IMG/VR virus record: IMGVR_UViG_3300025000_000055
Source of the DNA: a virus
Lineage: Duplodnaviria > Caudoviricetes
Direction: 5' to 3' (one strand)
Length of the DNA: 64,000 nt
In this document: positions 4,361 through 41,715 of the stretch, piece by piece
How positions within the stretch are numbered: position 1 is the first letter of the stretch
How the letters are laid out: every line of letters starts with the position of its first letter
Notes under the pieces: model-generated
What the model was told of the DNA's origin: nothing
Seen by the model: only the letters and a program-made list of their open reading frames with translations
The model's database searches: none
Made by a program: the position numbers and the translations under genes

Positions 4361-6202
4361 TTGCCTGCAATCGGACAAATCATTCCTAAATATACACATC
4401 CTCATTCCGAAACATATATAAATGATAATACTATATTTGAGGAAATAGTTTCCGAACCAGAAAGTGGTGTGCGTTTTATTAACGTATTCACCTCGTCCAA
4501 AGGACGAGATGGTGTTGTTTTAAAAAAAACAAAACACACTGATTTTATTGAAGAATATGGTAATCCAAATTATAAACTATTTGCTCAACCCGGTTATATG
4601 CCATATGCAGCATTAAAAACGTTTCAGGCTGAATGTCATTGCATGAGAGTGATGCCGGATGATGCATCTTATTCTAATGCTATAATTATAGCTAAGATTA
4701 AAGTTGATACGACTGTGGTTGGTAGTCCTAAATTACTTATTAGACACCAATCTGTATTTCTTACAAACTTTACAGATAAGACTGAATTTTCAGTTAATGT
4801 TGAGTTATTAAAAGATACTGACCCGGATGAAGATGGATGGTTAACATTTCCTTTATTCGGTGCATATGTGTTGGGTAGAGGTATTTATGGTGACACAACA
4901 AGACTAAGACTGAGTGCATCACCACAAGCTGATTTAGAAAATGGATATAAAAATTATCGTTTTGAGGTTCTTGATAGTGAAGGTGGATTAACACGTAAAG
5001 AACTTTTTACTGGTAGTTTATATACTGATGCTATTATTAGTTCAAATACTCTTTATATTGAGGAATTAATCAATGACTCTGACGGTAGTACTAAAATTGG
5101 TTTTTATGTATCTGAAAATTCTCTTAATGAAATTCTTACTATTTATAATGAACAAGTTGCAGATGAAGATGCTCAATTAACATTACAAACATTTGATATT
5201 ATTACAGCTCGTAGTATGATAGCCACTACTTTAACTGATATTGTGATTTCAAATACTGCCAGCGATGTTTCTTTAGATAGAGTTGAGGGTATTTTATTTT
5301 CTGGTGGAAACGATGGTTCCTTTTCAGTTAGTGGTGATGCTGGTGTAAGAGAAACGGCTATTGATACTGCTTACATCAAAGCATTCACGGAAGATAAAGT
5401 TCTTTTAAGTAAGAGAAGAACTCCGGCAGATTTAATTCTTGATGCAGGTTATTCTGATGATGTTAAACGTGCTCTTATCAGTTTTATTACTAATAGATAT
5501 GATGCATATGGTTTTATTGATGGTGGTATACTTGAAACACCATCTGATGCTATCACATGGGCTGAATCTATGACATCTTTAGCAGATAGAGTATTTTCTA
5601 AAGAATGTAACCATTACTATATAAAAGATCCATTTTCTGGTAAATCTATACCTATGACGATAACATATTTCTATGCCGGACAGTTACCACTTCACTTTAA
5701 AACTAATGGAAACAACACTCCATTTCAAGGTGAAACATATGCTAAACTTACTGGCTTTGTTAAGAATTCTTTGAAACCAATTATTGATGCTGACGATAAT
5801 GATATTAAAGAAACGCTTTATAATCTTAGAGTAAATTATTTTGAGTGTATTGCAGAAAATACATTTATAAGGGGGGTTCAAGGCACATCGCAAAATGTTT
5901 GGTCTGATTTATCAGAAGAACACAACATGCATGTGCTATTGGAACTAAAAAGAAAAGTTGAGGCGTTAGTCGCATCAAAATCATATAATTTTGCTGAAAA
6001 AGAAGACAGGATTGAATTTACAGAAACAGCTGAACGTATTTTTGGACCATATCGTGGGAAAAAAGTAAGAGAAATTTCAGTGTATTTTGATATGAGTCCA
6101 TTTGAAGAAGAAAGAAGTATTTTACATTGTTACATGGAGATTATATATAAGACAATAGCTAAGCGGGGCATTATTGAAATTGATATTAATAAACGTGTTT
6201 AA
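4361..6202 (+). CDS. Contractile tail sheath protein
   Basis: About 613 aa. GGNDG motif and a sheath-like C-terminal domain (LYNLRVNYF...LSEEHNMHVLLELKR...IIEIDINKRV). Followed by the tube gene. TTG 4361 chosen as start from AAGGAGG spacing (ORF track starts at 4352). Confidence 0.85.
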   Translation: MPAIGQIIPKYTHPHSETYINDNTIFEEIVSEPESGVRFINVFTSSKGRDGVVLKKTKHTDFIEEYGNPNYKLFAQPGYMPYAALKTFQAECHCMRVMPDDASYSNAIIIAKIKVDTTVVGSPKLLIRHQSVFLTNFTDKTEFSVNVELLKDTDPDEDGWLTFPLFGAYVLGRGIYGDTTRLRLSASPQADLENGYKNYRFEVLDSEGGLTRKELFTGSLYTDAIISSNTLYIEELINDSDGSTKIGFYVSENSLNEILTIYNEQVADEDAQLTLQTFDIITARSMIATTLTDIVISNTASDVSLDRVEGILFSGGNDGSFSVSGDAGVRETAIDTAYIKAFTEDKVLLSKRRTPADLILDAGYSDDVKRALISFITNRYDAYGFIDGGILETPSDAITWAESMTSLADRVFSKECNHYYIKDPFSGKSIPMTITYFYAGQLPLHFKTNGNNTPFQGETYAKLTGFVKNSLKPIIDADDNDIKETLYNLRVNYFECIAENTFIRGVQGTSQNVWSDLSEEHNMHVLLELKRKVEALVASKSYNFAEKEDRIEFTETAERIFGPYRGKKVREISVYFDMSPFEEERSILHCYMEIIYKTIAKRGIIEIDINKRV

Positions 6203-38828: not shown

Positions 38829-41715
38829 TCATACTTTAATATCAATAACGAACATTTCTTCTTTAATTCTTCGTCTCTCAACTTCTTCATCTAAAAGTTT
38901 TTCGAAATCTTTTGTAGTACCAACAAATACTTTATTTTCCTTATATTCATTAATAATGTCTATTCGTCTTTTAATATCTTTAAATTCTTCATTATTACTT
39001 ATAAAGAATTTTCCATCATAAAATTTACCTTCAAGAAACCCAGTATTAATATCTATATCAAATAATTCATTATTAAATTCAATTTTTAAACCCATAGATT
39101 TCAAAAAGGCTCCTAATATTTCAATATTTCTATTTTTAAAATTTGGTTTATATTTAAAATCTTTTATAGGGTTTAATCTTGTCATTAAATTTTCACCTAA
39201 ATTACGTCTACCTATAACAGATGACCTATAAAATAAATGTAGTTGAGCTATTAGTTCAGTTGGAACACCTATATTAGTATTAAGATTTTCATCAATACCA
39301 ATTCTTATAGGAGTCTTAGAATATAATTCCTGATGAGTTTTAGCCTTATTAGATTTTTCAGGTAAACCTTTTCTAGATAAAGTTCCAGTTGATCTAGCTG
39401 AAAAACCTTTCTTAGCTGTTTGCATTAATTTCATTACATACATATCACCAACTACTAACTTTTTCATCATTTTAATTTTCCTACCAAATCTATTTGTATA
39501 AACATCATATTGTTCAATCCAATCATGTTCTTCATATAATTGAATAAGTTTATCAAATAAAAATTCTTCTTCCCATAAAGGAGGTATATGAATAAATACA
39601 CCTTCTTCAACTAAATTATTAAAAAATTCTTCTTTACTAATAACACTTAATCTCTTTAAATATTGTCTTAATTTTTCTTCTTGGTCTTTATTAAAATAAC
39701 TTATTATATTAAGAAATAAATCTTCCTTTTCTTTTATGTCAGTCATTGTTTGAATACGTTCTACAGTTCTATTACAAATAAAAGTAATTGATTGTTCAAA
39801 AAGCTGGTATGAGTTTACAATTGTTTTAGACCATATCTTCATCTCAAATGAGATGCCTCCCGTTTCGGGTTTCCCCTACTCTACTTACTTCTTCAGTTAT
39901 AAGTAAATTATAACCTATGCTTTCGATGGTCGTTGAGCATATTTCAAATATTAATATTTGAAACTTCGCTGCGGATTATTCAATCTTAAACCTTTTTACC
40001 ATACCTGAGTAATTACTTCAGCCCTTATCTATATGTCACCATGATAAGTTGGTAGATTAAGATTAGCGAACTTTCCCGCAATTAGAGAGGTTTTAAATCG
40101 CCTAAACCTTACCAGTCCAGCGATTGATCACAGATAAACTGTTAAACAGAAGGTCTACACGTTCTCCAGTTTCTAAAAATGGCATCTCATCATCAGGTAA
40201 TATCTTTGATATAACACCTTTGTTACCATATCTCGTTGTATTCACATAGAACGTTAATCTATGCAGTTCTCTCATGAACTTCCCTAGTTTTCACTAAGAT
40301 ACTAGACTATATCATTAACCTAAATAAATTAGGTTACTTCCTATTTCGATTTAAGGGATTCTCACCCACCTACTTAGGCCCTACTCCTATTGTACATTGC
40401 AGTACCTAAGGGATAGTCGTTGAACTTTATTCCTTATATAAGGAATCTTAGCTGCGGATTACTCAATCTTTTAATAATATAAATATTATTAAAAGCTCTA
40501 AGAGCCTCCCCGACAATTAAAGAAGTTTTCTATATATGTCACCACATATAGGGGCTAAGCTATGTAACCCGTTACTTTCTGACCCACTTCTAAATAGGCA
40601 TCTTTTTCAACTAAAAATTCTATTACTATATTGGAAAATACTGAGTTATTTTCTTCTCTCCATTTATATTTTTCGTCTAATATATTTTTTGCTTTTCTCA
40701 TATAAAAACTTATTTCTCTAGAATATTTAGAACCAGAATCAATTATCTGTTTACATCTTTTAAATATTCTTTCATAATAAACTAATTGCATTTTATAATA
40801 TTTCATTATCTGTCTATTAAAATCATTCTCTTCCAATTCATCTAAAGTTTTATTACAATATATATCTATATCAATAATTTTACCTTTACCTTCAATAAAG
40901 AATAATACATCAGAAGTAAAATCAATCTTTCTAAGATTAGATTTCTTTAAATCATATAATAATTGATTATTATGAATTCTCCTCTTAGCACAAATTATTT
41001 TATCCTTAACATATTCGTTTATATCAGGAAATGTCTTATAATTATTACCATTCCCATATATATTACAAAAGATATCATTATCATTTAATGAAACTTTAAC
41101 TCTCTCAACTTCTGTTGAAACCATTCTTCTTGATAATGATTCTGAACATACAATAGCATCTTCAATAGTATTATTCTCTAAAAGATACATAAACTTAACA
41201 TTAGCACCATAACAATAATTCATATCTTCATCATAAGAAGAACTCTTATAAAGAACTTCTCCTTTATATATTGAAGTCCCAACTTCTTTATTATCAATAT
41301 TATCAGTATTATATTTGAAACCATATCTTTCTGTTAAATCTTCAACGTTTTTCTTTTCTATAATATCATATTGGTCATTTTCTTTATCATATATGAATAA
41401 TAAATATATTTGTTCTTCATTTTCACCATCTGTAAACTTACTAATTTTATCAATAATAACACAATCATTTTTAACTTTTTTATAACCAGTTGAATTCTTA
41501 CCAACTATATTTTCATAATTAGTAAAAATTCTTGGAAATTCGGGATTATTTAGAGTAACACATTGCTTCAAGTGAGCTGTAAACATAATATTTCTTGATG
41601 AACTAATATAACCTGGATTTGTTAAAAGAGTCATCCCAAATATATCATCTTTACCTTTAAACTCCTTTTCTTTTTCTTGTAATATTTCTTTCAATGACAT
41701 TGTAGTTTTATACAA
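38829..41715 (-). CDS. rpoB: Multisubunit RNA polymerase beta-like subunit, C-terminal part (probably non-virion RNAP), spliced (exons 41715-40567, 40233-40119, 39817-38829)
   Basis: Splicing restores GQKVTG|[11 protein letters not shown]...MPF...SVINR(T|TA=L)NSYQLFE, equivalent to the RpoB GDKxxGRHGNKG and SRMN motifs. EDAIV and [17 protein letters not shown] are also present. About 750 aa. Confidence 0.9.
39818..40118 (-). mobile_element. Group I intron H (301 nt, divergent, lacks P9)
   Basis: P AATTGCGGGAA, Q AATCCGCAGC, P7 GACCA/TGGTC. 7-bp P1 AATCGCT|...GGCGATT and 6-bp P10 GGTTTA/TAAACT. Confidence 0.88.
40234..40566 (-). mobile_element. Group I intron G (333 nt, no ORF)
   Basis: Family core, P1 GGGT|...GCCC, tail GTGAATACAACG. 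Excision restores TG|RYGNKG. Confidence 0.92.

Follow-up and report, generated by a model that had tools for sequence, protein, structure and literature searches.

The DNA analysed here is a 64,000-nucleotide (nt) stretch, referred to below as the window (IMG/VR record IMGVR_UViG_3300025000_000055; Duplodnaviria; Caudoviricetes), of an uncultured AR9/PBS1-like jumbo phage from groundwater. The positions shown, 38,829 to 41,715, hold part of an RNA polymerase (RNAP) gene split by group I introns, one of which, intron H, lacks the entire P9 domain. The window is AT-rich (GC content about 0.20-0.34), its closest DNA matches are the Bacillus phages AR9, PBS1, Goe21 and Internexus together with Staphylococcus jumbo phages, and the sequencing runs that contain its sequence are groundwater metagenomes. 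In AR9 the orthologue of the gene split by H is gp089, which encodes the C-terminal half of the beta subunit of the non-virion RNAP, and AR9 itself is intron-free at this site. Intron G lies 115 nt upstream of H, and the mini-exon between the two matches PF00562 (Rpb2 domain 6; E 9e-10, profile positions 230-264), so that the essential RNAP motif which an initial annotation of this DNA had seen interrupted by H can be named as Rpb2 domain 6. Both exons flanking H are open and conserved, and a complete relative genome (G001; CheckV completeness 100%), taken as a stand-in for the full genome of the window phage, has one copy only of the RNAP beta gene. The coordinates of the features are collected in Table 1.

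Table 1. Intron H, its structural elements and the adjoining exons in the window.
Feature	Position	Strand	Evidence
3' exon, C-terminal gene of non-virion RNAP beta	38829..39817	-	tblastn to RNAP beta of AR9, PBS1, BpSp and Internexus; AR9 annotation
Mini-exon, 115 nt (38 amino acids), between introns G and H	40119..40233	-	PF00562 RNA_pol_Rpb2_6
Intron H, 301 nt; group I intron free of open reading frames, IA2-like core, without P2 and P9-P9.2	40118..39818	-	RF00028, 72.9 bits; restored RNAP beta frame
5' exon strand of P1 (complementary to guide GGCGAUU)	40119..40125	-	same exon/guide pairing in same-site intron of Internexus
Internal guide sequence, P1 3' strand GGCGAUU, then UAAAA and P3	40096..40102	-	sequence; minimum free energy fold pairs guide with exon
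P10, intron strand GGUUUA	40103..40108	-	complementary to 3' exon UAAACU, 6 base pairs
P10, 3' exon strand UAAACU	39812..39817	-	sequence
P5 and extension: P5, P5a, three-way junction, P5b (loop AUGGUGACAUAUA), P5c	39978..40071	-	insertion relative to RF00028
P7 5' strand GACCA	39927..39931	-	pairs with UGGUC 39833..39829
P7.1 hairpin, J7.1/7.2 (..GAGUAGAGUA), P7.2 (GGG-GAAA-CCC); IA2-type peripheral pair	39867..39915	-	alignment to relatives
P8 hairpin CAUCUC-AUUU-GAGAUG	39840..39855	-	replaced by another paired hairpin in L005, L006 and L007
J8/7 AAGAUA and P7 3' strand UGGUC	39829..39839	-	sequence; RF00028 alignment
Whole 3' tail UAAAACAAUUG: proposed 2-bp P9.0 (AA/UU), 4-nt loop, omega-G	39818..39828	-	invariant in four contigs

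The last base of the 5' exon is T40119 (...AUC AAU CGC U) and the 3' exon opens UA AAC UCA UAC CAG. Joining of the exons across H restores a protein colinear with AR9 gp089 (GVFNRLNPSQLIEQ; FNRLNPSQLIEQ). The omega-G is G39818, and, as the tail has no other G, it alone yields an in-frame junction. P1 is formed between AAUCGCU and GGCGAUU, with U40119 in the U.G pair of the 5' splice site; direct reading of the sequence and the restored frame bear out the boundaries, the 7-base-pair (bp) P1 and the 6-bp P10 that had been proposed earlier. In a search of a short stretch, RF00028 matches H with 72.9 bits (E 8.3e-19), above its gathering cut-off of 50 bits. The covariance-model alignment contains P3, P4, P6, P7, P8 and the joining strands, and J3/4, J4/5, J6/7 and J8/7 all fit the group I consensus. 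P7.1 (GGUUAUAA-UUUAC-UUAUAACU) and P7.2, flanked by the conserved UCGAAAG and GAGUAGAGUA, place H with the IA2 introns. P2, which in IA2 introns stands between P1 and P3, is absent on reading of the sequence, the guide being followed directly by UAAAA and P3. The window copy holds no open reading frame (ORF) of its own, and with it no homing endonuclease. The reading frame of the 5' exon enters the intron as ...INRWTGKV* and ends at a UAG (40105..40103) within the P10 strand, just before the guide; it covers eight codons of H, and a ribosome terminating there would cover the P1 and P10 elements. A stop of the upstream frame just ahead of the guide is common among phage introns.

The 3' end is where H departs from its neighbours. 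Only 11 nt (UAAAACAAUUG) lie between the P7 3' strand and the 3' exon, and the absence of the whole P9-P9.2 domain, which the initial annotation had reported, is upheld by comparison with siblings whose tails run to about 71 nt. The window contains 11 group I introns, and all ten others share a near-identical tail of that length after P7, made up of a GAAA-capped P9, P9.1 (GUUCAUAAGAGAAC) and P9.2 and ending in ..ACG or ..UCG. Each sibling has one copy of the P9.1 motif GUUCAUAAGAGAAC, which makes exactly 10 in the whole window, and none lies near H. There is no P9 hairpin 3' of P7 in H, and of the extended domain 9 of IA2 introns a possible 2-bp P9.0 is left, without P9.1 and P9.2. Among about 35 phage introns inspected H is the sole P9-less case, and in G001 a P9 is present in every tail for which the P7 3' strand was located. 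Two introns of G001 (G001:C1:142929-143221, L027, and G001:C1:177368-177713, L021) have tails that differ from the sibling consensus, one of them short with a GAAA-capped P9 only, and tail length thus varies within this phage group. With all the core features of IA2 introns and without their P9 and P2, H is a structural variant of the class.

The siblings (A-G and I-K) reside in the same phage, some of them in the same gene, and share with H the IA2 core motifs (AAUCCGCAGC and GAUAURGUC). They differ in having P2, a short AU-rich P5 loop and the 71-nt P9-P9.2 tail, all absent from H. H in turn has the three-way-junction extension of P5, GAAA as the loop of P7.2 and, within P7, a C-G pair. The last of these results from a double change, GACCA/UGGUC in H against GACUA/UAGUC in the siblings, as had been noted before. 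Judged by these elements, H falls outside the sibling family and is of a separate lineage with the three-way-junction P5 extension, a point that the initial annotation had missed; the missing P2 and a P9-bearing homologue at the same site in Internexus had also been overlooked.

It is very unlikely that H is a decayed intron that no longer splices, sitting in a dead or dispensable gene, or that its short tail is an artefact of assembly, even though P9 has been described as essential and the genome is an uncultured metagenome assembly. Independently assembled contigs from two groundwater runs, possibly the window's own source, span 39682-39885 and 39690-39833 with 0 differences, no indels and no joints. 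The same intron occupies the same site in three further groundwater phage contigs of IMG/VR (L005, L006 and L007), each with the identical tail GAUAUGGUCUAAAACAAUUG running into the exon at UAAACUC. With one tail in four assemblies and in variant-free run contigs, the loss of a segment near the tail during assembly, raised earlier as a possible flaw, did not take place. The introns of L005 and L007 are identical and that of L006 is different, which gives three distinct H sequences including the window's, and the exon protein of these contigs is 87-88% identical to that of the window. The open and conserved exons, the single-copy RNAP beta gene and the pair-preserving changes in the core helices described below likewise argue against decay, as does the L006 copy (1613-2998 of IMGVR_UViG_3300025000_000078), which carries in L6, on an extended P6a stem, an intact ORF for a 341-residue nuclease (1824-2849; PHROG nuclease matches, phrog_559 with E 5e-47). 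The copies in L005 and L007, like that of the window, have no ORF. Intron G is missing from the L006 contig; H is thus independent of G, the two being gained and lost separately.

Searches for further copies added little. A metagenome scan with the exon-protein alignment gave only duplicates of two IMG/VR contigs, and a pattern specific to the P7.2-P3' region of H found the same three IMG/VR contigs and nothing further. The guide pattern TTTAGGCGATYTAAAAC matched 17 further loci in IMG/VR, all of them unrelated coding matches. A second match to GATATGGTC in the window (6045-6053, minus strand) falls in coding-looking sequence with no intron core nearby and is probably due to chance.

The differences among the H copies, read from the alignment (P8 by hand, since MAFFT had mis-aligned it), preserve pairing in nearly every case. 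P5a has changed from C-G to U-A, a double change between the window and L005; P7 has changed from A-U to G.U (GGCCA in L005 and L007), P7.1 from G.U to A-U and P5 from U-A to U.G. P8 reads CAGUUC-UUUAUA-GGACUG in L005, L006 and L007, different from that of the window yet fully paired. The sole loss of pairing concerns the outermost pair of P1, which is 6 bp long in L005. P3, P4, P6 and P7.2 do not vary among the copies, and in comparison with Internexus and BpSp covariation is seen in P4 and P7. The intron is 91.4% identical between the window and L005, and the exons 89.4%; between L005 and L006 the intron agrees at 282 of 289 aligned nt (about 97.6%) and the exon at 84.8%. Conservation of intron H is no lower than that of the coding exons around it, and this points to constraint on the RNA, to spread of the intron after the loss of P9, or to both. 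No more than about 15 nt from the splice site, the exons of L005 and L006 begin to diverge. A recent exchange of an already P9-less intron with a very short co-conversion tract is suggested by the comparison of these two contigs.

A P9 equivalent might be hidden in H, with the tail paired to upstream intron sequence or to the 3' exon, or another 3' splice site might be used. RF00028 does formally set its P9 hairpin on the 3' exon, at ACAAUUGUAAACUCAUA, where four of the five pairs are non-canonical and the hairpin would lie inside coding sequence. The tail segment AAUUG could pair with UAAUU of L5c in the window copy, a pairing that is broken in L005 and L007 although the tail is unchanged there; pairing of the tail with J3/4-P4 (UAAUUG) was likewise rejected, the segment being invariant core. 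The best duplex between the tail and the intron body has -2.6 kcal/mol against a mean of -4.5 kcal/mol for shuffled tails and is weaker than those of about 95% of them, and the check for an upstream helix standing in for P9, which the initial annotation had called for, thus found none. The next downstream G would break the reading frame. A concealed P9 or a displaced splice site is, on these grounds, highly improbable.

Comparably remote is the supply of P9-P9.2 in trans as RNA, either by excised siblings or by a separate gene piece. One cell would transcribe many siblings whose P9-P9.2 tails are nearly identical, and a third piece has been deemed possible for the Prasinoderma intron Pa.rnl.1 (PMC3873408). 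No free-standing P9.1 motif is found, however, the 10 motifs of the window belonging to its 10 siblings; in G001, each P9.1 motif with 0-1 mismatches either follows a P7 3' strand, about 35-40 nt downstream, or falls within an RF00028 match. Since about 95% of shuffled tails have a greater pairing potential than the tail of H, the latter offers no docking sequence, and H and the siblings are of different lineages. The initial annotation had left the choice between a naturally minimal ribozyme and one rescued in trans; the comparative evidence favours what would be a minimal ribozyme, and rescue by sibling RNA loses ground, as neither the window nor G001 contains a free-standing P9 piece.

The domain that H lacks is present in its closest counterpart. 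In the cultured phage Internexus, the RNAP beta orthologue is split at the same nucleotide (…AAU CGU U, then the intron, which opens …UUUAGGCGAUUUAAAACUCUCU, with the guide as in H). This intron (vB_BspM_Internexus, MW749003.1; L030 649-1998, with gp271 inside) has the identical insertion point, between ...FNR and L..., one base into the Leu codon, and its guide GGCGAUU, the same as in H, leads into UAAAAC and P3 without an intervening P2. Its gp271, a nuclease ORF in L6, is 36% identical to the L6 ORF of L006 (E 4e-58), and the two introns end alike, ...ACAAUG in Internexus and ...ACAAUUG in H. The shared site, the shared guide and the homologous nuclease mark a single intron lineage homing to one site. 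The Internexus intron differs from H in a shorter P5 extension and in having P9 (GAGA loop), P9.1 and P9.2, about 70 nt that end …AAGACAAUG and are absent from H. Since the same-site homologue has P9-P9.2, the loss of P9 in H is derived and cleanly bounded. At L030 ~1895-1925 the Internexus intron passes from P3' (AGAGAG) through UUAAUG straight into J8/7 AAGAUAUAGUC, P8 being seemingly absent, and RF00028 places only non-canonical, low-confidence pairs at that position.

The orthologous gene of BpSp (KT895374.1; L014 790-2490) has two introns. The second lies 13 nt upstream of the H site and, like the Internexus same-site intron and H, has no P2; it has a full P9-P9.2. Intron 1 of BpSp bears an ORF, and its tail is short, with no more than P9; in the BpSp record the exons are annotated as separate hypothetical proteins. 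By BLAST, introns that share the three-way-junction extension of P5 occur in SPO1-like Bacillus phages, in Goslar, in the gyrB gene of Internexus and in a faecal phage. In the two relatives with this P5 module whose 3' ends align cleanly, L001 and the Internexus gyrB intron, a GAAA-capped P9 is kept. L7.2 is GAAA in H as against AAGU or AAGC in the Internexus RNAP intron, BpSp intron 2 and L001; a by-eye search of H for a GAAA-tetraloop receptor (CCUAAG...UAUGG) to go with this loop gave no convincing match. Alignment with the Internexus intron, BpSp intron 2 and L001 leaves H with a single clean gap, about 65-70 nt long and flanked by GUCU.A.. and ..ACAAU(U)G. In BpSp and L001 an AA...UU pair (P9.0) beside omega-G encloses the P9 domain, and the same bases are present in H. 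Read from this alignment, H is a clean deletion derivative that retains only the two flanks of the P9 domain.

H is probably a working group I intron of IA2 type that lost P9-P9.2 by one deletion and was left with a near-minimal 3' end. Its ancestor would have been a mobile, nuclease-carrying intron aimed at exactly this position of the beta gene of the non-virion RNAP in AR9-like jumbo phages, and a single internal deletion of about 65-70 nt in the groundwater lineage would have taken P9, P9.1 and P9.2 while the two flanks stayed. These flanks are proposed to form a 2-bp P9.0 (AA/UU) with a 4-nt loop, stacked under P7 and followed directly by omega-G. In the first step, guanosine would attack at the U.G pair of the 7-bp P1, using the intact P3-P8 core; in the second, omega-G would dock in P7, placed by the P9.0 mini-hairpin and the 6-bp P10, and no elements other than P9.0, omega-G and P10 would select the 3' splice site. 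The scaffold that P2 and P9 usually provide may be unnecessary in vivo, or it may be replaced by the three-way-junction extension of P5 and by P7.1-P7.2 with its GAAA loop, and the extra G-C pair in P7 is a possible compensation for the lost P9 scaffolding. General cellular help, through translation up to the UAG before the guide or through RNA chaperones, is also conceivable.

Several points weigh against this reading. The distinct H sequences number three, too few for a statistical test of covariation, and the tail, P10 and the proposed P9.0 are invariant among them and so uninformative on those pairings. Recent recombination, and not selection, could account for part of the high intron identity. 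By itself, a 2-bp A-U helix is not stable. The core of T4 sunY is activated by its 3' terminal domain, and peripheral elements ring the active site of the Twort intron; given these roles of the periphery, the loss of both P2 and P9 is expected to weaken the folding of H. In the published view, P9 is essential (PMC3873408).

How far H would act alone is a narrower question. That it is an autonomous, protein-independent ribozyme, accurate without P2 and P9, is a tentative proposition, doubtful even when counted jointly with a variant in which a general helper is at hand: AR9-like jumbo phages may encode a general group I helper that lets one lineage lose P9-P9.2, as in H, or P8, as in Internexus. 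Less likely again is that H splices in vivo only with a specific protein, either a phage or host splicing factor or a nuclease with maturase activity, which replaces the P9 clamp. The joint absence of P2 and P9 speaks for such help, and the same-site intron of the cultured phage Internexus, seemingly without P8, hints at relaxed constraint in the lineage. With about 20 introns per phage (G001 has 18 RF00028 matches at E <= 0.01), a general helper would permit the loss of parts in single introns, and dependence on external factors has been proposed for the one published P9-less intron (PMC3873408). On the other side, no candidate helper protein was identified, the ORF-less copies in the window, L005 and L007 encode no helper in cis, the other introns checked retain their full periphery, and engineered P9-less constructs are active without protein (PMC11417360).

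The detection of H depended on how the search was run. At the gathering threshold, an RF00028 scan of the full window found three of the 11 introns and missed both H and G. An E-value scan of 12 kb found G (40282-40575) and again not H, which was recovered (39808-40145) only in the short-stretch search. The misses of H in the larger scans are due to the speed filters of Infernal. Default filters under-call AT-rich phage introns. In phage metagenomes, such introns and the genes that they interrupt are probably under-annotated.

In group I ribozymes, P9 and the contact made by its loop are regarded as near-universal or even essential, and both the Rfam model and engineering designs include them. 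The RNAP beta site provides a matched pair, one lineage with the P9 domain in Internexus and without it in the groundwater phages, and the P9-less form is conserved and apparently still spreading in an essential single-copy gene. It offers an experimental handle on how a 3' splice site is located when no more than P9.0, omega-G and P10 are present, and on what peripheral domains contribute in vivo. H also bears on the minimum size of a natural phage ribozyme and is relevant to the design of circular RNAs and of trans-splicing. If H does prove autonomous, the peripheral ring and the L9 clamp would be dispensable in a natural IA2 intron, and P9.0, omega-G and P10 would suffice to define the 3' site.

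The known phage IA2 introns (T4 td, nrdB and sunY; Twort orf142-I2; the SPO1 type; RF00028) share with H the P1 with its U.G pair, the P3-P8 core and P7.1-P7.2, and are also like it in omega-G, in P10 and in interrupting an essential phage gene at a conserved motif. They have a P9 with L9 and usually also P9.1/P9.2 and P2; H has neither P2 nor P9. IA2 and IStron ribozymes possess an extended domain 9 of P9.0, P9.1 and P9.2 (PMC4227781). Yutin et al. 2021 (PMC7886860) do not mention P9. In the literature found by word searches for natural introns without P9, one case and one engineering paper were relevant. The natural case is Pa.rnl.1 of the mitochondria of Prasinoderma coloniale, modelled without P9 and 'very unusual' to its authors (PMC3873408). 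Pa.rnl.1 is an organellar group IB intron that is trans-spliced, for which the authors suspect a third piece or external factors, in contrast to H, a contiguous phage intron in cis. In the engineering paper, Tetrahymena P1-P8 constructs with only P9.0 and omega-G after P8 perform both steps (PMC11417360). Unlike H, the Tetrahymena and Pneumocystis constructs of that work are artificial, are of subgroup IC1 and keep P2 and P5abc; their assays used high Mg2+, and efficiency was lost. Their P9.0-omega-G designs for cis-circularisation nevertheless resemble it where H is most reduced, in that after P8 nothing but P9.0, omega-G and P10 specifies the second step, which is also the proposal made here for H.

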